DNA of 64,000 bases. Origin: Thermodesulfovibrionales bacterium. GTDB lineage: Bacteria > Nitrospirota > Thermodesulfovibrionia > Thermodesulfovibrionales > SM23-35. The stretch lies in the NCBI GenBank assembly GCA_963715195.1, contig CAVQRT010000030.1, positions 260,557 through 324,556 of the forward strand, given 5' to 3'. Each line of letters opens with the position of its first letter. Positions within the stretch are counted from its first letter, which is position 1. Below are positions 12,601 through 43,208 of this stretch, piece after piece. The translations under genes were made by a program, and so were the position numbers. The notes beneath the pieces were generated by a model, which made no database searches, had not been told where the DNA came from, and was given only the letters and a program-made list of their open reading frames with translations.

Positions 12601-13299
12601 GTGGATACGCCGAAAAAAATCCTCGTTGTTGATGATGAAGCTGACCTTGTCGAGCTTGTTTCATATAATTTGAAAAAGGAAGGCTTTCACGTTGACCCGG
12701 CTTCAGATGGTGAGACGGCACTCGCAAAAGTACGAAAGGGTAAATACGACTTGCTGGTTCTTGACCTCATGCTCCCGGGGATTCAGGGGATTGAACTCTG
12801 CCGCATCCTCAGGAACGACCCGAAAACCTCTGTTCTGCCGATCATCATGCTCACCGCAAAAGGCGAAGAGGTTGACAGAATCCTCGGCCTCGAGATGGGA
12901 GCTGATGATTATATGGCCAAGCCGTTCAGTCCGAGGGAACTTGTTGCACGGGTCAAAGCCGTACTGAGGCGATCACGGGAGAAACCCGCAAGCGAAAGGG
13001 TCCTGAAGATAGGGGATCTTGAAATAGACAGGGAACGGTATATTGTTTTAGTAAAAACAAAGCCAATCAAACTGAGCGCCACTGAATTCAAGCTCCTCTT
13101 GTTCCTTGCCGAAAGAAGGGGGAAAGTATTCAGCAGAAACCAGCTCCTCGATGCGATATGGCGCGATGAGGCGTTTGTAGAACCAAGGACCGTAGACGTG
13201 CACATCAGGCGATTGCGATCAAACATCGAGGAAGACCCTGCGCAACCCAGGTATATAAAGACTATGCGGGGCATAGGGTATTTCTTTGATGCAAAGTAA
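12601..13299 (+). CDS. phoB: Phosphate regulon response regulator (PhoB/PhoP, OmpR family)
   Basis: REC domain plus winged helix (RTVDVHIRRLR); paired with a PhoR-like kinase, divergent from DUF47-pit. Confidence 0.85.
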   Translation: MDTPKKILVVDDEADLVELVSYNLKKEGFHVDPASDGETALAKVRKGKYDLLVLDLMLPGIQGIELCRILRNDPKTSVLPIIMLTAKGEEVDRILGLEMGADDYMAKPFSPRELVARVKAVLRRSREKPASERVLKIGDLEIDRERYIVLVKTKPIKLSATEFKLLLFLAERRGKVFSRNQLLDAIWRDEAFVEPRTVDVHIRRLRSNIEEDPAQPRYIKTMRGIGYFFDAK

Positions 13300-15131
13300 T
13301 GAAGCATGTCCTGTTCAGAAGAATTGTCCTCGCCTATCTCGTTATCGCTCCGCTTCTCCTCATAATTCTTGAATTCTACCTCTCGGGAACCGTAAAAGAA
13401 AATTATATCTCCAACCTCGGGGACAGTCTTATCATCCAGGCTCATCTCATTGCAGATCAGGCATCGGCTCTTGATGCAAAAAATCTCGACCAGTTCTGCA
13501 GGGAGTATAAGGAAAAGACCGGAGCACGGGTAACCATCGTCGATAGTACCGGCAAGGTTTTAGGGGATTCCGATGAGCCTTCTGCGAAGATGGAAAATCA
13601 CCTCGACAGGCCGGAGATAAAGGAGGCCGACTTGGGTGACATCGGCTCTTCAATCAGGTTCAGCAAAACCCTTCAAGAAAACCTTTTCTATCTGGCGATT
13701 ACCTTCGAGTCTGATGCAGGCAGACAATTTCTCAGGCTCTCACTCCCTCTCAAGGACATCGAGCAAGCGGTGAATGGTATCAGGATGAGAATTGTGACAG
13801 CAACCCTGGCGGTATCGTTGCTGGCAATACTTTTGGGACTGATACAGGCAAGGAGAATTACACGGTCAGTGGAGGAAATTACGGCTTTTTCGAAAGAGGT
13901 GGCCTCCGGGCATTTCAAAAAACGGCTTTTGCTCAAGGAAAAAGGCGAACTTGGAGAACTGGGGAAAAATATCAGCGAGATGGCACATGAACTCTACGAT
14001 AAGCTCAGGCAGAGTGAGGAAAGGAAGCAGAAGATTGAAGCAATCCTCAGGAATATGTCTGACGGATTAATCCTGTCGGACCGAAACGGAACCATTCTCT
14101 TAAGCAATGAGGCCGTTTCAAGATTCTTCAATGTTGCCTCAAGTATCGAAGGGAAAACCATCATGGAGACCCTGCGGAAAACAGATCTGATGGATATGAT
14201 AGACCACGTTGCAATGAGCAGGGAAAGGATCTCCCGTGAGATCGAAATAACCCATCCGAAGGATCTCTGCCTGATGGTTACCGCTGCTCCTTTTTACTCG
14301 CACCGCAAGGAAGATGAGTTATCCGGCATTGTCATGACTTTTCATGACATTACGAGGCTGAAGAGACTTGAGGAGATACGCAAGGATTTCGTGGCAAATG
14401 TTTCCCATGAAATCAAAACGCCGATTACCGCCATTAAAGGATTCACGGAAACCCTGCTGGAAGGAGCCCTTGATGACCGCGACAATGCTTACAAATTTCT
14501 TGAGACCATAAAAAACAACAGTGAACGGCTCAATTCACTGGTGACAGACCTCCTCACCCTTTCACGGATCGAACTCGGGGATATCGTGATACAGCAGGAC
14601 GTGGTCAATCTTGACGACGTCATCGATACGGTCTTCACCATACTGGCGGAGAAGGCACAGGAAAAACGATTATATCTCAGGAAGGATATTTCTCCCGCAA
14701 TAATGGATTTCAGGGCTGACAGGGACCGCCTGATTCAGATACTGCTCAATCTTGTTGACAACGGTATTAAATTCACTGAGCAGGGAGGGGTAACAATAAG
14801 GGCAAAGAGTGAAACAGTAAACGTTACAAGTGCAGATAAAACCGAGACTCCTACTTCATCCTCCGGCATCCAGGCAGTCTCTGACATCGAACCTTTCACC
14901 TCTGTCGTCATTTCTGTTGAAGATACGGGAATCGGGATTCCGAAAAAACATCTCCCCCGGCTCGGCGAGCGTTTTTACAGGGTCGACAGGGCACGTTCGC
15001 GTGAGCTCGGAGGCACCGGCCTCGGACTCGCAATCGTGAAACATCTTGTGAAGGCGCATGGCTGGGATATGCAGATAGAAAGCGCTGAAGGCCAGGGGAC
15101 CACTGTACGCATTTTCTGCCCCCCTGTTTGA
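13299..15131 (+). CDS. phoR: Phosphate regulon sensor kinase (HAMP-PAS-HisKA-HATPase)
   Basis: ENHLDRPEI, DFVANVSHEIKTP, ERFYRVDRARSRELGGTGLGLAIVKH. Confidence 0.88.
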   Translation: MKHVLFRRIVLAYLVIAPLLLIILEFYLSGTVKENYISNLGDSLIIQAHLIADQASALDAKNLDQFCREYKEKTGARVTIVDSTGKVLGDSDEPSAKMENHLDRPEIKEADLGDIGSSIRFSKTLQENLFYLAITFESDAGRQFLRLSLPLKDIEQAVNGIRMRIVTATLAVSLLAILLGLIQARRITRSVEEITAFSKEVASGHFKKRLLLKEKGELGELGKNISEMAHELYDKLRQSEERKQKIEAILRNMSDGLILSDRNGTILLSNEAVSRFFNVASSIEGKTIMETLRKTDLMDMIDHVAMSRERISREIEITHPKDLCLMVTAAPFYSHRKEDELSGIVMTFHDITRLKRLEEIRKDFVANVSHEIKTPITAIKGFTETLLEGALDDRDNAYKFLETIKNNSERLNSLVTDLLTLSRIELGDIVIQQDVVNLDDVIDTVFTILAEKAQEKRLYLRKDISPAIMDFRADRDRLIQILLNLVDNGIKFTEQGGVTIRAKSETVNVTSADKTETPTSSSGIQAVSDIEPFTSVVISVEDTGIGIPKKHLPRLGERFYRVDRARSRELGGTGLGLAIVKHLVKAHGWDMQIESAEGQGTTVRIFCPPV

Positions 15132-18016: not shown

Positions 18017-18071
18017 CGTAACCAAAATTTAATCTGCCTTTAATATTCCTGTAACATTTCTCCATTAAAGT
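18017..18071 (+). promoter_or_regulatory. Pho-box promoter of the porin gene
   Basis: CGTAACCAAAA/TTTAATCTGCC/TTTAATATTCC/TGTAACATTTC (11-bp period), 5 nt, TAAAGT. Confidence 0.75.
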
Positions 18072-18160
18072 AAGAGCGGTTTTTGAGCAGCAGGAGGGTG
18101 AAAACAAGCTTGCAATCGTCTGCTTGTTACCAATCAAAACAACGTTAAAGGAGGAAAGGT

Positions 18161-19373
18161 ATGAAGAAGAAGGTAGTGGCAATCGTTGTCAGCCTTTGTT
18201 GCCTCGATGTTCCTCGCCGGAACGTCCATCGCAGCAGAGGATATCACCGACCCGATTCTGAAAAAGCTGGTCGAGAAAGGTGTCCTCACAAAGGAAGAAG
18301 CAATCTCGGTAACCGATGAGATTAAGGTGGAAGCAAAAGCAAAAGAGAAAAAGGCTGAAGAGAAAAAAGCGAAGTGGGAAGGCAGTTTCAGGATGCGCCA
18401 TGATTCACAGTGGTATGATGAACCTGAAAAGGCCGACAGGCACAGGGAAAGGATACAGGGACGTTTCGGATTTACCTATGATATCAACGAACTGACCCAG
18501 GTTGGATTCACACTCGGCACCGGAGAAAAACAGGACCAGGTTACCCTGAATCAGTCTTTAGGCGATATCTTTGAACTCAAGAATGTCTGGCTCGATGCAG
18601 CCTACGTCAGACATAATTTCTTCGATAAAAAGCTCCAGGTTTATATGGGAAAGTTTAAAAATCCGTTCACCCCTCATACCTGGATTGTTTTTGATTCTGA
18701 TCTTCGCCCGGAAGGGGTAGCTATTCAGGCACAGCATGAAGTCGGCAAGCCTACCCTTTTCCTGAATGCAGGGGCATTCCCACTCGATGAGATCAGCGGT
18801 GATTCTTCTGACCCCTGGCTTCTCGGAATTCAGGGTGGTATAAAATATGAGCAGAAGGATAAATTCAACATCGCGGTCGGACTTGCCCACTATAACTACT
18901 CCAATGTCGATCTCGTCTCTGCAGACGACAATAAATACTACGGGAATACAATCAGTGATTTCCGGCTCTACAACGCAACAGCCAGCGTTGCACTGTATCT
19001 GCCGCTCTATGTCGGCTTGACCGCTGATTACATCTACAACACTGCAGCGGATGACGACAGTGACGGATATCTGTTTGGCATTACCGCGGGAAACAAAAAA
19101 GTGGAGAATTTTAAGGACTGGCAGGTATTTACTACCTACAGCAGAGTGGAAAGCGATGCAACATATGACGAATTTTCCGATTCGGATTTCCGCAGCGGCG
19201 GGACAAACAATAAGGGCTGGACATTCGGATACCGGTTCGGACTCGGAAAGGGATGGGCGCACGCACTCAAGTATTACATTACCGAAAATGTGAGCTCACA
19301 AATCCCCAGTGACAAGAGATCAACAGAGGAGAACAGAATCCAGATAGATCTCACCTATGCATTCAAATTCTAA
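18161..19373 (+). CDS. Outer-membrane putative porin; +1 frameshift in the signal peptide near 18185
   Basis: RBS AGGAGG then MKKKVVAI, shifted into LSAFVASMFLAG; LVEKGVLT motif, amphipathic beta strands, C-terminal Phe. Confidence 0.85.
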
Positions 19374-19497
19374 GTCAGTCGCTCTTTAACGCCAGATAAG
19401 GAGCACTGTTAACCCCTCTGCCCTCCCACCCCCGGGAGGGCATATTTTTTTGTGGTACGTGACTGATATTATGTATACAGATTTTTCCCTATTGAAT

Positions 19498-19586
19498 GCC
19501 ATCCCCGCTTGTCGGGAATTTTTTTGATACTCTGTTCGAAATGGGAGTTGCTCTGAAGAAAGATTCCGGCCAAGCCGAAATGACAA
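19498..19586. repeat. REP-like composite palindrome
   Basis: GCCATCCCCGCTTGTCGGGAAT...GATTCCGGCCAAGCCGAAATGAC. Confidence 0.55.
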
Positions 19587-19627
19587 GTTTGAAGCTATTT
19601 GCAGAATAATAATAAGACTATGTACCA

Positions 19628-20860
19628 ATGAAACAACCGTTCCTCTGGGGTGTCGCGACTTCGGCCTTTCAGCTCGAGGGTTCGCCCCATGCTGATTGGG
19701 CTTCGTGGGATTCCATCCTGAGCTCAGCGCCAGAGGTGACTAACCACTACGCCCTTTACAAAAAAGACCTCCGGCTCCTCAAGGACCTTGGAGTCAACGC
19801 CTACCGCTTCTCGGTCGAATGGAGCCGGATTCAGCCGAAAGAGAACCTATGGGATGAAGAGGCCATCTCCCACTATCAGGAGATTATTGACATACTGAGA
19901 GAGAGCAATATTGAACCGATGGTAACCATCCACCATTTCACCCACCCGCTGTGGTTCATCAAAAAATATCCCTGGCATGAATCGCGGTCGGTTGAGAAAT
20001 TTATGGCCTTCGCCAGAAAAGTCTTCTCGTCAATCAGCGGGGTGAAGTACTGGATAACGTTTAACGAACCATATGTGCTGATACTGGGCGGGTACCTTGA
20101 AGGGTGCATGCCGCCGGGGATAACCGACATCTCCCTTGCAGTCAGAGCGATGGAGAATATCCTGATTTGTCATGGCAAAACCTATGACATGATCCACGAA
20201 ACAATGCCCTCAGCACTGGTGAGCGTTGCGCATAATATGGCTGCCCTTGCACCATGGAAGAGATGGAACCCGCTGGACAGGCTTCTTGCAAAAATTGCGA
20301 AGTACTTCTATAACCATTCACTGCTCGACGCCTTCCTGACCGGCACGCTTCGCGTGAAATTCCCCTTTGGAAGAGCGGTTCACCTTTCTGTGCCGGTACG
20401 AAACAAACTCGATTTCTTCGGTGTCAATTATTACACGAGAGTGCACATGCGGTTTAACCCCTTCAGGAAAATGGCTGTTGAACTGAGGCACAGGGATATC
20501 GACGGCCATGGTCTCACAGACATGGGATGGGAAATCCATCCGCACGGGCTTGAGAAAGTGCTGAATTATGCCTCGACGCTGAATGTCCCGATCATCATCA
20601 CAGAAAACGGCATTGCAACACATAATGACCGTGCGAGGATCAAATTTATGAAGGGACACATTGATGTCCTCGAGCGGTGCTTAAAGAAGGGCGCCGATGT
20701 CCGGGGCTATTTTTACTGGTCCCTCATCGATAACTACGAATGGCTTCAGGGGCTCGACGCCCGTTTCGGCCTCTACAACGTTGATTTCAACACCATGGAG
20801 CGCACACCCACCAAGGCAGCATTGTACTATTCATACCTGATTAAAAGCAGAGGATTTTAA
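19628..20860 (+). CDS. Glycoside hydrolase family 1 (beta-glucosidase-like)
   Basis: WGVATSAFQLEG, YRFSVEWSRI, TFNEP and ITENG catalytic motifs, WSLIDNYEW. Confidence 0.95.
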   Translation: MKQPFLWGVATSAFQLEGSPHADWASWDSILSSAPEVTNHYALYKKDLRLLKDLGVNAYRFSVEWSRIQPKENLWDEEAISHYQEIIDILRESNIEPMVTIHHFTHPLWFIKKYPWHESRSVEKFMAFARKVFSSISGVKYWITFNEPYVLILGGYLEGCMPPGITDISLAVRAMENILICHGKTYDMIHETMPSALVSVAHNMAALAPWKRWNPLDRLLAKIAKYFYNHSLLDAFLTGTLRVKFPFGRAVHLSVPVRNKLDFFGVNYYTRVHMRFNPFRKMAVELRHRDIDGHGLTDMGWEIHPHGLEKVLNYASTLNVPIIITENGIATHNDRARIKFMKGHIDVLERCLKKGADVRGYFYWSLIDNYEWLQGLDARFGLYNVDFNTMERTPTKAALYYSYLIKSRGF

Positions 20861-20910
20861 CCAAAAATTCATCGTCGTTTCACACTCCTGTAATTAAAAA
20901 TACTTATTAT
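20856..20910 (+). promoter_or_regulatory. Pho-box promoter of the PHP and glycosyltransferase pair
   Basis: TTTAACCAAAA/ATTCATCGTCG/TTTCACACTCC/TGTAATTAAAA, 5 nt, TATTAT; ATG follows 7 nt later. Confidence 0.7.
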
Positions 20911-20917
20911 TCTATTA

Positions 20918-21610
20918 ATGTTATTGTGTGATTTTCATATTCACACAAAGTACTCTGATGGATCGGTAGAGTTACAGAGAACCGTTGATCTCTTCGGCCA
21001 GGCCGGCTTTGATGTCATTGCCATAACTGACCATGTAGTCAACGGCGACAGTTCATTCGGGAAATTGGCCCACCGTTTCAGGTTTACCATCAATGAGAAA
21101 AACTTCCATGCCTACATGGCACATATCAGAGAGGAGGCTGATCGGGCCTGGGACAAATACCGAATGCTCATTATACCGGGAGTCGAGATCAGCAAGAATT
21201 ACATCTCATCTGAAAAATCGGCACATATCCTGCTCATCGATATCAAGGAATTCATCCCCGCATGCTGGAGCTACGAGAAGATATTCCTTGAGGCAAAGGC
21301 ACAGGATGCCATCATTGTGGCCTGCCACCCGCATCACAGTTCCGAAATCACAACACGGGATACCCTGTTTCTCTGGAAGAACCGCGACAAATACGCCAAA
21401 TACATTGATGCGTGGGAAATCGCAAACAGGGATGACGTATTCAACGTTATCAGCCTGAAGAAATATCCCTATATCGCAAACAGTGATTTCCACAGGGCAA
21501 GGCATATCTATTCGTGGAAGACAATGCTGAACTGCGAAAAGAATGTTGACTCGGTCAAGAACTGCATTCGGCACAACAAAGGGGTTGCTATAACGTTGTT
21601 TAGGAACTAA
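20918..21610 (+). CDS. PHP-domain phosphoesterase
   Basis: DFHIHT.YSDG, AITDH, PGVE, CHP, NSDFH. Confidence 0.9.
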   Translation: MLLCDFHIHTKYSDGSVELQRTVDLFGQAGFDVIAITDHVVNGDSSFGKLAHRFRFTINEKNFHAYMAHIREEADRAWDKYRMLIIPGVEISKNYISSEKSAHILLIDIKEFIPACWSYEKIFLEAKAQDAIIVACHPHHSSEITTRDTLFLWKNRDKYAKYIDAWEIANRDDVFNVISLKKYPYIANSDFHRARHIYSWKTMLNCEKNVDSVKNCIRHNKGVAITLFRN

Positions 21611-21623
21611 AAAAGGAGAGACG

Positions 21624-22889
21624 ATGGAACTGGTATACATATTTTTTGGCATCACCGTAGTAGGACTCACCGCCTACGGGTTGCAGATTTGGGCAATACG
21701 GAAAACCCTGTGCGAGAACGAGGTGCCGGCGGGGAAAGGCGCTGCGCGCGGATTCTGCCCGCCCATTTCAGTCTTGAAACCGCTGAAGGGGCTCGATGAC
21801 AACCTGTTCGACAACCTTGAAAGCATATGCCTGCAGGATTATCCGGAATATGAAGTTATCTTTTCCCTGCAGGATTACAACGACCCAGCGTACAAAGTAG
21901 TCAGGAAGATTAGGGATAAATACCCGGACAAAAATATCACTATACTGGTTGAGCGCTGCGAAGTTGGTCTCAACCCAAAGGTCAACAATCTCATCCCGGC
22001 ATACCGGATAGCCAAATACGAACACGTCCTCATCAGTGACAGTAATGTATTCGTTAACCGAGACTATCTGCAATCTATCGTCAAGCTCATGTCTGACCCG
22101 GTTGTCGGTCTCGTCAGCAACATCATACGGGGAAGTGGCGGGCGTTCCCTCGGATCGATCTTCGAGAACCTCCATCTTAATTCCTTCGTACTGGGAAGCG
22201 TCTGCTTCCTGGACAGATTTCTTAAGATGCCCTGCGTTGTCGGAAAATCGATGCTTATGAAGAAAACCGACCTCGACGCGATAGGCGGGCTGAAAGCGTT
22301 CAAGGATGTGCTTGCAGAAGATTATATGATCGGGAAAAAGATGCAGCAACAGCGGAAGACCGTCATTCTGTCGAGTCACGTCATTCAGAACATCAATGAA
22401 TACTGGGGGGTCAGAAGATTTCTCAACAGGCATACGCGGTGGGGAAAACTCAGGTGGAGAATCGGCGGGGTATCTTACTTCTCCGAACTGATAGGGAATC
22501 CGGTGTTCATGTCTTTTTTCCCCCTCGTTCTCTGTGGGCCCTCAGGAATGACCATGTCGTTCGTTCTGATCGTGAGTACCCTTAAAATCCTTGGTGATAT
22601 GGTGATAGGGAGTGCATTAGCGAGTACAGATGCAGGGAGCAGTTCCTCAGGCAAAGAGAGCACGCCGTCTTCTTTTCTATCTGTGCATTCATTGTGGTAT
22701 GTCCTTGCTCCGGTCAAGGATCTACTCATTGGCCTCGTGTGGTTCGTTCCCCTTATCAGCAATACCGTAGTTTGGCGGGGAAACCGCTACATCATCGGCA
22801 AGGATTCCCTGTTGTCACCATGTCCTGAAGTTGGCCTCTGGTCTTGGAGATACAGACTTGCCGACGCTATCAAAACCCGACTTGCCTGA
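21624..22889 (+). CDS. Ceramide glucosyltransferase / HpnI-like glycosyltransferase (GT21-like)
   Basis: N-terminal TM, SVLKPLKG, GLNPKVNNL, ISDS, LAEDY, RHTRW. Confidence 0.88.
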   Translation: MELVYIFFGITVVGLTAYGLQIWAIRKTLCENEVPAGKGAARGFCPPISVLKPLKGLDDNLFDNLESICLQDYPEYEVIFSLQDYNDPAYKVVRKIRDKYPDKNITILVERCEVGLNPKVNNLIPAYRIAKYEHVLISDSNVFVNRDYLQSIVKLMSDPVVGLVSNIIRGSGGRSLGSIFENLHLNSFVLGSVCFLDRFLKMPCVVGKSMLMKKTDLDAIGGLKAFKDVLAEDYMIGKKMQQQRKTVILSSHVIQNINEYWGVRRFLNRHTRWGKLRWRIGGVSYFSELIGNPVFMSFFPLVLCGPSGMTMSFVLIVSTLKILGDMVIGSALASTDAGSSSSGKESTPSSFLSVHSLWYVLAPVKDLLIGLVWFVPLISNTVVWRGNRYIIGKDSLLSPCPEVGLWSWRYRLADAIKTRLA

Positions 22890-22944
22890 ATTAATCAAAT
22901 CGTAAAATTCATTTCATATTCTCGTAACGCACCCCTGATATTGT
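22890..22944 (+). promoter_or_regulatory. Pho-box promoter of the phoA remnant
   Basis: ATTAATCAAAT/CGTAAAATTCA/TTTCATATTCT/CGTAACGCACC, 5 nt, TATTGT. Confidence 0.7.
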
Positions 22945-23448: not shown

Positions 23449-23479
23449 AAGCATGAGGGGGTGACCCCTCATGCTTTTT
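23449..23479 (+). terminator. Intrinsic terminator
   Basis: AAGCATGAGGGG GTGA CCCCTCATGCTT followed by Ts. Confidence 0.85.
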
Positions 23480-23511
23480 CTCATCCGATTCCCGATATTC
23501 ATGGCGCAAAA

Positions 23512-23555
23512 TGTAACAGCTCTTTCATAATTACGTAACATTCATTTGTTAGCCT
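23512..23555 (+). promoter_or_regulatory. Pho-box promoter
   Basis: TGTAACAGCTC/TTTCATAATTA/CGTAACATTCA, 5 nt, TAGCCT (TG-extended). Confidence 0.7.
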
Positions 23556-23574
23556 TATCGAAAGGAGGTGCTCA

Positions 23575-23769
23575 ATGAATATGACAACGATCAAGCCGCA
23601 GGGCTTCGTCAGGCACTCTGAAACATTCTGTCCGTTTGACGGCAATACCACCTGTCTTGCTTCCCTGTCTTCCATGGCATTGGATAACAAGATAAGAGAA
23701 ATCTGCTGCAGTACTGAACAATTTGATGATTGTCCCATATTCCTCGCAAAGGTTTTGCGGCGAAGCTAA
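23575..23769 (+). CDS. Small 4-Cys protein (paralog 1)
   Basis: AAGGAGGTG RBS; CPF..C.A..C....F..C..F..K pattern. Confidence 0.75.
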   Translation: MNMTTIKPQGFVRHSETFCPFDGNTTCLASLSSMALDNKIREICCSTEQFDDCPIFLAKVLRRS

Positions 23770-23789
23770 CGCCGCAGAACATACCATCC

Positions 23790-23845
23790 GGTAACCGAAA
23801 TTTCACCGTCATGTAACATTTGTGTAACATATCGCGTGGTATGGT
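23790..23845 (+). promoter_or_regulatory. Pho-box promoter
   Basis: GGTAACCGAAA/TTTCACCGTCA/TGTAACATTTG/TGTAACATATC, 6 nt, TATGGT. Confidence 0.78.
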
Positions 23846-23865
23846 ATACACAGGGAGGTAATGGA

Positions 23866-24111
23866 ATGCTTTCTGATAAAGTCTTCACCACATGTCCGTA
23901 TTTGACCGGCAGCACAGAAGGTGCAGTGTGCAGTGCAAAGGCTGTTCTCCTGAGAAATCTCGAAAATATCAATCCCGATATGTGCATCAGCAGACACTTT
24001 GAGATATGCAGGGTTTACATCGAAAAATTGCATGAAATCGATTTCCTGAATACCGGAATACATGGGAATCTCGCGGCACGCTGTAACAAAAATTTAACCG
24101 TAACTTCATGA
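23866..24111 (+). CDS. Small 4-Cys protein (paralog 2)
   Basis: GGAGGT RBS; CPY..C.A..C....F..C..Y..K pattern. Confidence 0.75.
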   Translation: MLSDKVFTTCPYLTGSTEGAVCSAKAVLLRNLENINPDMCISRHFEICRVYIEKLHEIDFLNTGIHGNLAARCNKNLTVTS

Positions 24112-24136
24112 AGGTGTAACACGGCTTCTCTATGAT
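24082..24136 (+). promoter_or_regulatory. Pho-box promoter (probably leaderless transcript)
   Basis: TGTAACAAAAA/TTTAACCGTAA/CTTCATGAAGG/TGTAACACGGC, 5 nt, TATGAT; ATG 6 nt later. Confidence 0.78.
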
Positions 24137-24142
24137 GTCACT

Positions 24143-24466
24143 ATGGGGTCGCATAATGGTCCGCAGACCAAGGAGGTTAAATGCCCTTTTTGCAGTTCAG
24201 GTGCAGTCTACAAATATGGAAAGATCAAAAGCGGGAAACAGCGGTTTTACTGCATCATATGCGGGCGACAGTTTACCCATAATACGCGAAGAATTCTGTG
24301 TGACTTCAGACCGACATGCAGGAAGTGCGGAACCATGATGCACGTATATAAAAGAGAAAAGGATTTTACTCGATTCCGGTGTGCTCATTATCCGCAGTGT
24401 AAGGCCTATGTCAAAATCAAAATTCTAACGAAAAAGGAGAAAATGAATGAGCTATTATCTCCATGA
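24143..24466 (+). CDS. Double zinc-ribbon protein (IS1 InsA-like ribbon plus topoisomerase C4-like ribbon)
   Basis: CPFC..VYKYGK..SGKQRFYCIICGRQF; CRKCG.MM...FRCAHYPQC. Confidence 0.75.
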   Translation: MGSHNGPQTKEVKCPFCSSGAVYKYGKIKSGKQRFYCIICGRQFTHNTRRILCDFRPTCRKCGTMMHVYKREKDFTRFRCAHYPQCKAYVKIKILTKKEKMNELLSP

Positions 24467-24818
24467 TGTTCCTGGCCGTTTACGCATTAAGACGCCGTTC
24501 ATTAAGGGCAATACTGCTCTCGCAAAACATGTGGAACGGTTCCTCGAACAGATTCACGGCATTAAGTCAATAACGACAAATCCGCTTACCGGTAGCATCA
24601 TCATGACGTATGACGAGCGAAAAGTGACTTCAAAGATGCTGCTCGAAACTCTCAGGACCAGGGGTATTTTTAACCCCGCGAAGGCAGTTACCAATGACCA
24701 GTACATACATTCCAACGCATCCAGGGCAAGCCATATAATCTATAAGGCAGTCGTTGGGGCCTTTGTGGAAAAGGCTTTCGAAGGATCAGCGTTGTCCCTG
24801 CTCGCCGTGCTGCTTTAG
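24447..24818 (+). CDS. HMA2-like domain protein
   Basis: YLHDVPGRLRIK...GIKSITTNPLTGSIIMTYD; AAGGAG RBS; overlaps the previous ORF. Confidence 0.8.
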   Translation: MSYYLHDVPGRLRIKTPFIKGNTALAKHVERFLEQIHGIKSITTNPLTGSIIMTYDERKVTSKMLLETLRTRGIFNPAKAVTNDQYIHSNASRASHIIYKAVVGAFVEKAFEGSALSLLAVLL

Positions 24819-38729: not shown

Positions 38730-38885
38730 ATTCATTGGGCAACAAAGCCAGGCACTTGAAGCATAAAATGTCAGCCGATACCGTCTATCTCTCCAGTTTA
38801 CAAATTTAACCCTATCGTAATATTCCTTTAACACAAGAGGTCTAAGATGAAACCATACCTGTTTTTTCCCAAGGGGGGTGAGACA

Positions 38886-38940
38886 TGTAACAAAAAATTA
38901 ACATGACTGTCACATAGCTGTAACAAAATCGTTGTATCGT
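38886..38940 (+). promoter_or_regulatory. Pho-box promoter of pstS
   Basis: TGTAACAAAAA/ATTAACATGAC/TGTCACATAGC/TGTAACAAAAT, 5 nt, TATCGT. Confidence 0.88.
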
Positions 38941-38963
38941 ACAGAATGAAAAGGAGGAAAGTA

Positions 38964-39776
38964 ATGAAAAAACTGCTAATTATGCTGTTTTCGGTTGTTT
39001 TTGTTTGTTCCATGTTTGGCTTGTCTTATGGCGAGGATCTGAGGATTGACGGATCAACAACGGTTCTTCCTATAGCCCAAAAAGCGGCAGAAGTCTTCAT
39101 GAAGAAGCATGCGGATACAAGAGTTTTTGTATCGGGGAGCGGTTCGGGTACCGGCATCAAGGCTCTTGTAGATGGCACGACTGATATTGCAACAAGTTCC
39201 CGCGAGGCAAAAGAAAAGGAATTTGCTTCTGCAAAAGGAAAAGGTGTTTCCCTGACCGGCCATAAAGTTGCCCTTGACGGAATAGTCCCGGTTGTTCACC
39301 CTTCCATGAAGCTTGATAATGTTAGCATGGAGCAGCTCAGAGATATTTACAACGGCAAAACTAAGAGCTGGAAAGAGCTTGGCGGACCGGACAGGCCGAT
39401 CTCCGTCGTATCGAGGGATACTAGCTCCGGAACATATGAAGTGTGGGAGGAGAAGGTACTCAAAGGCGACAAGGTGAGAGCAGATGCATTGCTTGTCGCA
39501 TCAAACGGTCAGGCCGTCCAGACGGTTGCGCAGAACAGGTTTGCAATCGGCTATATCGGAATCGGGTATGTTGACAAATCTATTAAGGTCTTATCGGTGA
39601 ATGGAAAGACGGCGAGCCCGATCGAGGTTCGCGATAGTTCATGGCCTATTGCACGGCCTCTCTTCATGTACACCAATGGAAAACCCGCCGGTACCATTGC
39701 AAAATTTATCGACTTTGTGCTCTCGGCAGATGGGCAAAAGATCGTGAATGAAGTAAAATACGTAAGCATAAAATAG
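38964..39776 (+). CDS. pstS: Phosphate ABC transporter substrate-binding protein
   Basis: DGSTTV, GSGTGIKAL, SRDTSSGT, IARPLFMY. Confidence 0.95.
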   Translation: MKKLLIMLFSVVFVCSMFGLSYGEDLRIDGSTTVLPIAQKAAEVFMKKHADTRVFVSGSGSGTGIKALVDGTTDIATSSREAKEKEFASAKGKGVSLTGHKVALDGIVPVVHPSMKLDNVSMEQLRDIYNGKTKSWKELGGPDRPISVVSRDTSSGTYEVWEEKVLKGDKVRADALLVASNGQAVQTVAQNRFAIGYIGIGYVDKSIKVLSVNGKTASPIEVRDSSWPIARPLFMYTNGKPAGTIAKFIDFVLSADGQKIVNEVKYVSIK

Positions 39777-39899
39777 TCGTAAAAGGATCAAACAATCCAG
39801 GCGGTCAAGGATTCAGGGCACGAGCAAGTGACTGACAATTTGGATCCTTGACCGTTTTAACTGTTTTTTTAAGGAACCATAAGGAAGTCAATACCTACC

Positions 39900-40886
39900 G
39901 TGAAGTGGCAGACAAAGGAAAAAACCGTTGAATTAGCGGTCAGCTCTATCGGGCTCGTCTCCGTCGTCGTTCTCCTCCTTATTGCTTTTTTCCTCTTTAA
40001 GGAAGCCTTCGCGATCTTTTATAAAGCGGGGGTACTGAAAGTGCTCTTTGGCACGGAGTGGTACCCAACATATGACCCGCCGAGTTTCGGAATGCTCCCC
40101 CTCATCATGGGCACCGTTGCTGTCACGTTTATCACCGCGCTCCTGGCTATTCCCCTTGGAGTTGCGACAGCTGTTTACGTCGCAGAGGTTGCACACCACA
40201 GGGTGAAAGAGTTCCTGAAGCCTTTGATAGAGATCCTTGCCAGCTTTCCTTCGGTGGTTCTCGGCTTTTTCGGTATGGTGATTATCGCCCCTCTTCTCTC
40301 CAACTGGCTTTCCCCCATTCTCGCAGAAAAGCTCCCTGAACTGCTGCGGAGTACCAACATCCCCTTTATCTCAACGACGCTCGCTGATTTCTGCTACAAC
40401 AAACTGTTTATCGCTTCAGGGCTCAACATATCAACAGCAGCTTTGATGCTGACCGTGAGGGCAATACCGGTGATTTCAAGCATCGCCGAGGATGCATTAA
40501 CCGCTGTCCCTCGTACATACCGGGAAGCTTCCTATTCCCTTGGGGCGAACAGGTGGGAAACAATATGGAGGGTCGTAATTCCGGCTTCTGTTTCCGGTTT
40601 AAGCGTTGCTGTTATTCTTGGTATCGGGACGATCATCGGAGAGACCATGATTGTGCTGATGGTAGCCGGAGGAGCTGCTGTCATCCCCTACGGGATCTTT
40701 GATCCTGCAAGGCCGATGCCTTCCGCCATTGCAGCCGAAATGGCAGAGGCCCCCTATCAGAGTCTTCACTATCATGCTCTGTTCGGTGTCGGCGCGATAC
40801 TTTTTCTTATTACCTTTATTCTCAGTCTCCTTTCAGATTTCATCTCAAAGAAATATCGCACCGTCAGGATTGGTGAAAAAATTTGA
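39900..40886 (+). CDS. pstC: Phosphate ABC transporter permease
   Basis: EILASFPSVVLGFFG, EASYSLGA, IGETM. Confidence 0.95.
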   Translation: MKWQTKEKTVELAVSSIGLVSVVVLLLIAFFLFKEAFAIFYKAGVLKVLFGTEWYPTYDPPSFGMLPLIMGTVAVTFITALLAIPLGVATAVYVAEVAHHRVKEFLKPLIEILASFPSVVLGFFGMVIIAPLLSNWLSPILAEKLPELLRSTNIPFISTTLADFCYNKLFIASGLNISTAALMLTVRAIPVISSIAEDALTAVPRTYREASYSLGANRWETIWRVVIPASVSGLSVAVILGIGTIIGETMIVLMVAGGAAVIPYGIFDPARPMPSAIAAEMAEAPYQSLHYHALFGVGAILFLITFILSLLSDFISKKYRTVRIGEKI

Positions 40887-41785
40887 ACGGGAATATTTAT
40901 CAAACCATCAGCTCTCAAGAACTTCTTCAGAAGAGAAAACGCCACCTGCGGGAAAATTTTTTCCTTTCGCTCATTCGCACGCTCGGGTTCACTGGCGCGA
41001 TTTTTCTATTTATCATTTTAGCTTTTGTCATTTATAACGGCGCACATATCCTGAGCTGGGATTTCATTACGAAGCCACCGGTTGAAGCGATGACAAAAGG
41101 CGGTATTTTCCCCGTCATTGTCGGGACAATCCTTTTGACCCTCCTCTGCATGATCGTGGTCATCCCGATTGGAGTTATCACCGCTATTTTTCTCGCAGAA
41201 TATTCCGAGCCTGGGTTGCTCCTCAACATGGTCATGATGTCTATCTATACCCTTGCAGGAGTGCCTTCCGTTGTCTTCGGGCTTTTCGGTCTCGCTGTCT
41301 TTGTCGTGGCCTTCAACTTTGGAATGAGTCTGCTCGCAGGTTCGCTGACGCTTGCCATCATGGTTCTGCCGTACATCATATCAACTTCCGAAGAGGCATT
41401 AAAAGCTGTGCCGTACAGCTTTAAGGAGGCTTCACTGGCATGTGGAGCGACAAAATGGCAGACGATTCGAAAGGTTATTGTACCGACTGCAATGCCCGGA
41501 ATCCTGACAGGCGCAATCCTTGGAACCGCCAAGGTCTCAGGAGAGACGGCGCCCATCATGTTCACCGCTGCTGCGTTTTTTACCCCGGGAGTCCCCAGAT
41601 CTCTCTTCGAGCCTATCATGGCATTGCCCTATCACATCTATGTTCTTGCAACTGCAGGGACGCATATTGAAGAGACGAGACCGATACAATACGGCACAGC
41701 TCTCACGTTAATTATTCTCGTGTTGGGCATGAATCTCTTGGGGATCATTCTCAGGTCAAGGCAGAGAAAAAAAAGGGTATGGTAG
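40883..41785 (+). CDS. pstA: Phosphate ABC transporter permease
   Basis: [26 protein letters not shown]. Confidence 0.95.
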
Positions 41786-42543
41786 AAGAAAAGAACATAT
41801 TCGAGATTAAAGATTTCAGCATTTTTTACGGAGACTTCATGGCCGTTAAAACAGTGAACCTCAATATTGAAGTACATAAGATTACGGCTATCATCGGGCC
41901 CTCCGGATGCGGAAAATCAACCCTTTTAAGGTCCCTCAACAGGATGAACGATCTGATTGTCATTTCACGGGTTGAAGGGCAGGTGCTGTTCAGCGGGGTA
42001 GATATTTACCTGAAGGGAACCGATGTGATTGAGCTGCGGAAAAAGGTCGGCATGGTCTTTCAGAAGCCGAATCCTTTCCCGAGTTCTGTCTATGAAAACG
42101 TTTCATATGGCCCAAAAATCAGGGGGATAAAAAAGAAAGGCCAGCTTGATGAGATTGTGGAAAATGCGCTGACAAGGGCTGATCTCTGGAAAGAGGTGAA
42201 AGACAAGTTGAATGAATCGGGCATGAGCCTTTCTGGCGGGCAGATGCAGAGGCTCTGCATTGCGCGGTCCCTTGCCCAGGAACCGGAGGTGCTGCTGTTC
42301 GATGAACCGACGTCGGCGCTCGACCCTATTTCGACTGCAAATATAGAGAGCCTGCTTAAGGAGTTACAGAAAACTGTCACTATTGTTATTGTGACCCATA
42401 ATATGCAGCAGGCTGCGCGGATTTCTGATTGCACGGCCTTCATGTATCTGGGAGAACTCATTGAATTTGGAGACACGGACACGATTTTTGTGAATCCGTA
42501 TAATAAACTTACAGAAGAATACATTACAGGGAGATTTGGCTGA
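41779..42543 (+). CDS. pstB: Phosphate ABC transporter ATP-binding protein
   Basis: [34 protein letters not shown]. Confidence 0.97.
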
Positions 42544-43208
42544 TGGGAATTTTCGACAATGAATTAAAGGCACTGCGGGAAATGGTATTGAAACTCGGTT
42601 GCATGGTTGAAGACGCCATCCGCGATTCTGTAAAAGCCCTTGTTGAGAGAGACAGTGAGCTGGCGCGCGAAGTCGTGAAGAGAGATCATCTGGTGAATGC
42701 GCTCGATGTGGGAATCGATGAAGAATGCGTGCGGCTGATTGCGCTGCGCCAGCCGATGGCGAGGGACCTCAGGCTGATCACGACAGCGATGAAGATCACG
42801 ACAGACCTTGAAAGGATGGGAGATCTTGCAGTCAATATTGCGGAGAGGGCGATTGAACTGAACAGCGAACCGCAGCTGAAGCCTTTCAAAAACATTCCGA
42901 AAATGGCAGACATAACCCAGCAAATGGTGAGGGATTCCCTCGATGCATTTGTCACCGGATGTTCTCGCCTACCCTATGAAGTTATCAAGCGGGATGACGA
43001 GGTCGATGAGCTCACGGTAAGGAACTTTGAAGAACTCCTTGGCCTCATGCTTCAGGACCCGAAAATAATTCCTTTAGCGGTGAAGAGAACCTATATAGCA
43101 AAGTATCTTGAAAGAATCGCCGACCACACCACGAACATTGCGGAGATGATCATCTATATGTGCAAAGGCAAGATGATCAGGCACACCGACATATCGGAAG
43201 AGAAGTAG
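42543..43208 (+). CDS. phoU: Phosphate signalling complex protein PhoU
   Basis: QPMARDLR, DLERMGD, LERIADH. Confidence 0.96.
   Translation: MGIFDNELKALREMVLKLGCMVEDAIRDSVKALVERDSELAREVVKRDHLVNALDVGIDEECVRLIALRQPMARDLRLITTAMKITTDLERMGDLAVNIAERAIELNSEPQLKPFKNIPKMADITQQMVRDSLDAFVTGCSRLPYEVIKRDDEVDELTVRNFEELLGLMLQDPKIIPLAVKRTYIAKYLERIADHTTNIAEMIIYMCKGKMIRHTDISEEK

Follow-up and report, generated by a model that had tools for sequence, protein, structure and literature searches.

Three promoters built of tandem 11-bp repeats head a cassette of four small genes, ORF-A to ORF-D, and the sequence and phasing of these repeats make it very probable that the promoters are under PhoB control and that the small proteins of the four ORFs belong to a PhoB regulon. 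The cassette is part of a stretch of 64,000 nt, here called the window (G000:C30:260557-324556), of the 2.8-Mb genome of the host, an uncultured Nitrospirota bacterium. The regulatory switch is familiar, and its targets here are nameless in the libraries scanned. The unnamed ORF-A family thereby gains a precise condition, low phosphate, and a candidate regulator, and ORF-D gives the first regulatory context found for a stand-alone CoBaHMA protein. Also new here are the probable paralogy of ORF-A and ORF-B, a second phylum with a drifted box, a likely leaderless zinc-ribbon message, the CoBaHMA assignment and a rival explanation based on arsenic.

Table 1. Features of the window (window positions)
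Feature	Position	Strand	Details
phoB-phoR	12601..15131	+	best NCBIfam match TIGR02154 PhoB; divergent from PiT and DUF47
Pho island: boxed porin, GH1, boxed leaderless PHP, GT21 glycosyltransferase	18017..22889	+	Pfam and box models
Truncated alkaline phosphatase, 98 aa	23131..23427	+	PF00245; ends right after catalytic-serine motif
Terminator-like hairpin, 12-pair stem and T run	23449..23482	+	just 5' of promoter A
Promoter A	23512..23555	+	three 11-bp units at 23512, 23523, 23534; -10 TAGCCT 23550-23555
ORF-A, 64 aa	23575..23769	+	unnamed family; conserved Cys 19, 27, 45, 53; conserved C-terminal helix motif
Promoter B	23790..23845	+	four units 23790-23823; -10 TATGGT 23840-23845
ORF-B, 81 aa	23866..24111	+	conserved Cys 10, 22, 40, 48; tail overlaps box C
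Promoter C	24082..24136	+	four units 24082-24115; -10 TATGAT 24131-24136
ORF-C, 107 aa, double zinc ribbon	24143..24466	+	IS1 InsA-type then Top1-type; PF03811, NF050000, weakly PF01396
ORF-D, 123 aa, CoBaHMA (HMA_2) domain and hydrophobic C-terminal helices	24447..24818	+	PF19991; 20 nt overlap with ORF-C
Reference four-unit box and pstSCAB-phoU	38886..43208	+	repeats and Pfam/NCBIfam

Phased boxes and the phosphate island

The original prediction described three modules within about 1.3 kb, each of repeats, a TAnnnT element and a short ORF, and its coordinates and anatomy are correct (Table 1). It also held that the repeats match those before pstS. We examined this with a model built from the pstS promoter only (a seven-base unit PWM from the four pstS units, with four units summed at period 11). 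Across the whole genome, the top four loci outside the training set were promoter B (29.4), promoter C (24.2), the porin promoter (20.6) and promoter A (19.8), which places the cassette boxes first, second and fourth and bears out the likeness to pstS. Ten positions score at least 19 at period 11, whereas the six other periods tried (8-10 and 12-14) give 0-2, and each of five shuffled genomes holds 0-1 such positions; the genome-wide scan thus puts the cassette sites far above background and leaves the prediction standing. A box scoring at least 14 is present upstream of 4 of the 2348 long ORFs. A second model, combining box and -10 element, was trained on five non-cassette promoters and scanned over 5.6 million positions, and it ranks C, A and B first, third and fifth among the non-training positions.

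The cassette promoters therefore have tandem 11-bp repeats resembling the organism's own pstS promoter as well as a fixed phasing of the boxes to the -10 element, the TAnnnT hexamer being offset from the start of the last unit by 16 nt in A, C, pstS, porin and PHP and by 17 nt in B. The spacing from box to -10 is as in the Pho promoters of E. coli. The three promoters were not among the calls of a generic sigma-70 scan, as expected from their lack of a -35 element. An SD sequence precedes both ORF-A (23561-23569) and ORF-B (23853-23859). In the one RNA run (share 0.06), reads cover only the downstream SRPBCC gene, with zero on the cassette, and are uninformative either way. Overall, the promoter sequences argue strongly that PhoB would bind and induce the cassette.

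The same box heads pstS, the porin gene, PHP-GT21 and phoA, and the phoB-phoR genes of the window are likely the regulator pair of the boxes. The genome encodes five OmpR-type regulators, i.e., four besides PhoB, and PhoB scores 280.7 bits against its best NCBIfam match, TIGR02154, which is below the curated cut-off of 296.2, its gene neighbourhood being in favour of a PhoB. The number of regulators and the score would fit boxes of another OmpR-type regulator and an incidental link to phosphate, but the set of genes headed by the same box speaks against this, and we consider it very improbable, together with the related suggestion that ORF-C is a mere IS1 remnant (see below).

Upstream of the cassette, a Pfam scan found PiT, DUF47, phoB-phoR, glycerophosphodiesterase, porin, GH1, PHP, GT21 glycosyltransferase and truncated phoA, and pstSCAB-phoU lies 14 kb downstream. 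The truncated phoA is preceded by a weak box (last unit at 22923, score 17.6 in the box plus -10 model) and aligns at 63% identity with residues 1-93 of the phoA (408 aa) that lies before ORF-A in locus L019; the remainder beyond its 98 codons was not found anywhere in the assembly. Loci L019 and L020 both have phoA at the matching place, full-length in L019.

Some further observations were made on boxed promoters of this genome. A strong SD-like word followed by a start-stop pair (ATG-TAA) overlaps the first unit of the pstS box (window 38875-38891). Among 32 boxed pstS promoters from relatives, 14 have both the SD-like word and the ATG (22 have the SD-like word), whereas SD plus ATG is found in 0 of 83 boxed promoters of A, B, PHP and C. 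Upstream of the pstS promoter there is a further, distal box with a -10 element (window 38794-38848). The boxed PHP gene has a leaderless start (window 20856-20918), as do 19 of 30 boxed PHP homologues. Outside the window, at G000:C30:244877 on the minus strand, a boxed and likely leaderless arsC is followed by an acr3-like gene that is seemingly frameshifted or fused. At G000:C16:35547 on the minus strand, the model that combines box and -10 has its second-best non-training match, with a score of 24.2; the 400 nt that follow hold no ORF of 60 aa, and a small gene, an RNA or chance are possible there.

The four-cysteine family and its relatives

ORF-A and ORF-B had been described as four-cysteine proteins of 64 and 81 aa; each does have four conserved cysteines, the actual count being five. 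The fifth cysteine of ORF-B (C73) is encoded by the TGT in box C's first unit and was rejected as a protein-level feature. The four cysteines are retained in 144-146 of 146 A-family sequences, in which A29, D51, L57, K59, L61 and R62 are also conserved and most remaining positions are free. Profiles of ORF-A and ORF-B match on all four cysteines (77-90% probability, E 2e-5 to 2e-6), compared with about 1% probability for controls of A or B versus C, and we regard the two as probable paralogues. They alone are clear members of the four-cysteine family in the host genome. The islands of relatives hold further paralogues with loop motifs of their own, of which B' and E are clear and F is linked weakly (28% to E, at most 2% to A, B and B'). 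Homologues of all four cassette ORFs are under purifying selection, with median dN/dS values of 0.24 for A (29 unsaturated of 325 pairs) and, based on few unsaturated pairs, 0.37 for B (4 of 55), 0.22 for C (2 of 105) and 0.20 for D (5 of 91), none being above 1.

The view that these proteins are not a described Pho-regulon component is upheld, as no match for either protein turned up in Pfam, NCBIfam, PHROG, the PDB or fold comparisons. At most 3 of the 146 A-family members match any family in Pfam, NCBIfam or PHROG (best E 0.001), ORF-B has no match in Pfam or NCBIfam, and a PDB sequence search with ORF-A gave nothing or chance tail-spike matches. In profile scans, the DUF1127 domain is absent from both A and B, and neither matches a helix-turn-helix or WhiB family in Pfam or NCBIfam. 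In the ESM Atlas, ORF-A falls in unnamed clusters alone and ORF-B finds nothing; viral contigs contained no relative. The structure model of ORF-A, of only moderate confidence (pLDDT 66, pTM 0.40; a first fold with pLDDT 53 was set aside), has a short hairpin and helices at 38-44 and 54-63. Foldseek with this model returned 0 matches in PDB, one viral match at E 8.3 and 0 in VIA wide at Z 2, which is weak evidence from a small model. No longer, fused form of ORF-A was present among 5442 candidates in a weak search, a 163-aa IS-like read-through match (P0083) having been set aside. Distant, unboxed Cys4 cousins occur at the N-terminus of open frames of about 300 aa in L143, L144 and L147 (as a tandem pair in L147); these may resemble glycine-cleavage-H-like proteins. 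Solely on the basis of the invariant cysteines, A and B would bind metal, a claim that we hold with moderate confidence.

ORF-A relatives form 240 clusters at 50% identity. Matches were found in 29 of 57 genomes of the family and 111 of 401 genomes of the phylum Nitrospirota; the phylum to which G057 belongs has them in 21 of 401 genomes, and the order of G703 in 46 of 121. Beyond Nitrospirota, ORF-A occurs in two lineages of one second phylum, and 65 of 67 carrier records are titled Nitrospirota or Thermodesulfovibrionales. ORF-B has matches in 53 of 201 genomes of the order and ORF-C in 45 of 301 of the phylum. These relatives are kin, and none of the conservation counts given here are independent. 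Since some carriers are single-contig genomes, cultured hosts of the A family may exist.

Boxes and Pho linkage are conserved among the homologues, in keeping with the original prediction, and ORF-A relatives are mostly found behind a phased box or within Pho operons. With the pstS-only model and a score of at least 14, an own box precedes 26 of 68 A genes and 21 of 30 B genes in 67 loci selected by A, the neighbours in these loci including pstC (30), PHP (27), GT21 (26) and phoB (19). In 20 further loci, chosen from 111 genomes for long contigs and including three that repeat earlier loci, the best A match has a box of at least 12 in 15. Among top-scoring loci, B is boxed in 23 of 29 selected by B, and of 28 selected by C, 19 have an own box and 27 a box within 900 nt. 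Forty of 80 A genes are without an own box (score under 11), and 15 of these 40 lie directly 3' of GT21 in a boxed PHP-GT21 unit. Of the 15 strongest A matches in the second phylum, 10 are boxed, and among the matches listed A often stands at the head of a porin-pstSCAB-phoU unit or beside phoB. For the GC-rich lineage, which is the order of G703, the pstS-trained model reaches at least 11 in 1 of 32 loci. With a leave-one-out lineage model, 26 of 31 loci (L131, which lies outside the order, being excluded) show four units and a -10 with unchanged offset, versus 6 of 31 when all upstreams are shuffled; 5 of 31 are unboxed even with this model. A phosphate porin, pstS, ppx or phoB-like gene is located within 1.5 kb in 21 of the 31, in a survey that scanned 46 of 124 neighbouring frames. 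The box consensus drifts by lineage, with its geometry kept. That the A family is under the Pho switch across lineages with diverged boxes suggests that these anaerobes have long kept it as part of the response.

Relatives carry A, B and C-D in independently shuffled arrangements, and the cassette as a fixed operon was rejected on this ground. Neighbours seen in particular lineages include DUF3562-like small genes, often 3' of A in one Nitrospirota family (L108-L127), and, in two second-phylum genomes (L151, L153), a stand-alone PhoB-like receiver 5' of A. In L233, a 2-hydroxyacid dehydrogenase, which we take to be possibly a phosphite dehydrogenase, is 3' of A (L233:1976-3145). Among the matches listed, the four-cysteine family accompanies porin, pst and phoB genes also in places where neither GH1-PHP-GT21 nor C-D is seen nearby. 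This bears on the suggestion that the small proteins are accessory subunits of a phosphorus-free lipid pathway (GH1-PHP-GT21, ornithine-lipid acyltransferases). GT21 is directly 5' of A in 19 of 80 cases, GT21 and PHP recur in the A-selected loci as listed above, and the CoBaHMA domain is hypothesised, in the accessible text of 10.64898/2025.12.07.689555, to bind anionic lipids. However, A in the second phylum precedes porin, pst or phoB, with no GT21, PHP or GH1 among the matches listed, and an accessory role in lipid synthesis appears quite unlikely.

ORF-C and ORF-D

The predicted double zinc-ribbon ORF overlapping an HMA2-like gene was recovered by the domain profiles (Table 1). ORF-C has a net charge of +18, and its eight cysteines are invariant in 15 of 15 homologues. 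Its mRNA is likely leaderless because the ATG lies only 6 nt past the -10 element, and this spacing is kept in 9 of 12 boxed C homologues. The match of ORF-C to the IS1 N-terminal zinc domain is what would make it an IS1 remnant. The IS1 transposase profile NF033558 reaches only 30 bits against a cut-off of 100, though, and there is no transposase body and a single copy in the genome. An IS remnant was rejected in view of purifying selection and of the box, leaderless start and partner D being kept across families. ORF-C is predicted to be, likely, a nucleic-acid- or RNA-polymerase-binding zinc ribbon. An SD-like word within ORF-C, followed by an out-of-frame 33-codon ORF (window 24171-24282), is probably incidental.

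A zinc ribbon of this kind fits the alternative that A, B and C form a second tier of transcription factors, which would bind DNA, a sigma factor or RNA polymerase and relay the phosphate signal to other genes, functioning like WhiB proteins and perhaps carrying an iron-sulfur cluster. The genes have their own promoters, K59 and R62 are conserved on the C-terminal helix of the A family, and C combines an IS1-type DNA-binding zinc finger with its strong positive charge. But A and B have a net charge of 0 and, as described above, no helix-turn-helix or WhiB match, so we consider this alternative unlikely; a transcription-factor role suits C better than A or B.

ORF-D combines its PF19991 match with the conserved histidine and basic residues of the CoBaHMA signature (H6, R11, R13 and K15 invariant in 15 of 15 homologues), and cysteine is absent in 15 of 15, hence there is no CxxC. 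A classic HMA Cys metallochaperone was rejected for this reason. ORF-D homologues are boxed in 1 of 23, D being usually 3' of C. By analogy, ORF-D is likely a membrane-associated binder of anionic lipids tied to phospholipid replacement. The original idea of a phosphate-starvation module of small metal-binding proteins holds for the Pho-box promoters and Pho linkage, but the "module" is weakened by an ORF-D with no cysteine and a CoBaHMA signature, and by the independent shuffling of A, B and C-D, the cassette not being fixed.

Possible roles and likeness to known systems

Our best explanation of the whole, put forward tentatively, is that PhoB drives A, B and C/D and that A and B are metal-folded, partner-binding tuners of the Pho response. 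Under phosphate starvation, phosphorylated PhoB would bind the phased 11-bp repeats of the three promoters, which would drive ORF-A, ORF-B and, on a message that is likely leaderless, ORF-C and ORF-D. The four fixed cysteines of A and B would clamp one metal ion (zinc by default), folding a small domain that may bind partner proteins and thereby tune the Pho response. A and B may feed back on the PhoR-PhoB-PhoU-Pst signalling complex, as DUF1127 proteins do on PhoR, and the distinct Cys2-Cys3 loop of each paralogue could select a different partner; our confidence in this partner and role is weak. That A and B are protein-binding modulators of Pho signalling is possible, if somewhat doubtful, and is favoured by their fixed frame, subfamily loops, neutral charge, the company of phoB, pst and porin genes and the precedents of DUF1127, YoaI and YtfK. 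Adjacency to PhoR/PhoB singles out neither as the partner, and island clustering explains it equally well. Because A is present in only the 111 Nitrospirota genomes out of 401, it is not a general part of PhoR signalling.

Alternatively, A and B may be PhoB-induced thiol sinks or chaperones, which would hold As(III) from Pst-imported, ArsC-reduced arsenate until export, or buffer zinc and soft metals as phosphate pools fall. Links between PhoBR and arsenic reportedly exist in print. Consistent with a sink are the boxed arsC-acr3-like unit at C30:244877 (minus strand) with its three-Cys arsenate-reductase-type motifs, the presence of ArsC in 13 island loci and, at no more than 1.5 kb from B, in 8 of 29, the arsenic permeases flanking A in L229 and L235, and the cation ATPase and CDF genes recurrent in the islands. 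However, four cysteines per 50 residues at fixed spacing, with a conserved non-Cys helix face, are unlike metallothionein, several paralogues carrying different conserved loops are hard to square with a bulk sink, and ORF-D has no cysteine. We consider a sink rather unlikely. Extending the reading of A and B as tuners, the Cys4 mini-domains could be an old, expanded family that forms a hidden phosphate-starvation layer in two anaerobic phyla, a panel of paralogues switched on by PhoB, with separate targets (the Pho complex, RNA polymerase, Pst-imported arsenite), joined by a CoBaHMA protein that senses lipids and a transposase-derived zinc ribbon whose mRNA is leaderless; this wider picture is doubtful.

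The cassette is similar to the PhoB/PhoP regulon of E. coli and Desulfovibrio (DVU1083) in having tandem 11-nt units before pstS, porin and phoA. The Pho box is defined, in the accessible text of PMC4415409, as two 11-nt units with 7 conserved and 4 free bases; here there are three or four units per promoter, with the unit consensus TGTAACA (CCTAACA-like in the GC-rich lineage). Small-protein members of the Pho regulon are known, e.g., yoaI, and ytfK is regulated indirectly, according to the accessible part of PMC10294691, whereas the members here come from an unnamed Cys4 family or are a double zinc ribbon (ORF-C) and a CoBaHMA protein (ORF-D). A literature search, with subscription journals and supplements outside its scope, returned no description of the four-cysteine family or of a Nitrospirota Pho regulon.

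A and B resemble the DUF1127 small proteins (SDP1-3, YjiS), described in the accessible part of PMC12501420 as several paralogues tied to phosphate control that bind PhoR, in being several small paralogues linked to phosphate control, but there is no sequence match, and DUF1127 proteins are positively charged whereas A and B are neutral and cysteine-framed. The phosphate-starvation small proteins YoaI and YtfK of E. coli act on EnvZ and SpoT, respectively (accessible parts of PMC11429745 and PMC6917717); their sequences are unrelated to A and B, and YoaI is a membrane peptide. The two ribbons of ORF-C match the IS1 InsA zinc finger and the topoisomerase I C4 ribbon, but ORF-C has no helix-turn-helix or transposase and is a stable chromosomal gene. 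PF19991 (HMA_2) corresponds to CoBaHMA (accessible part of 10.1101/2024.07.07.602159), which is described in the accessible text of PMC8890360 as having a conserved histidine and a basic patch and no CxxC. ORF-D shares all of these features, and it differs from the known CoBaHMA proteins in being stand-alone, with a short hydrophobic tail, paired with a Pho-boxed zinc-ribbon gene and not a calcyanin.
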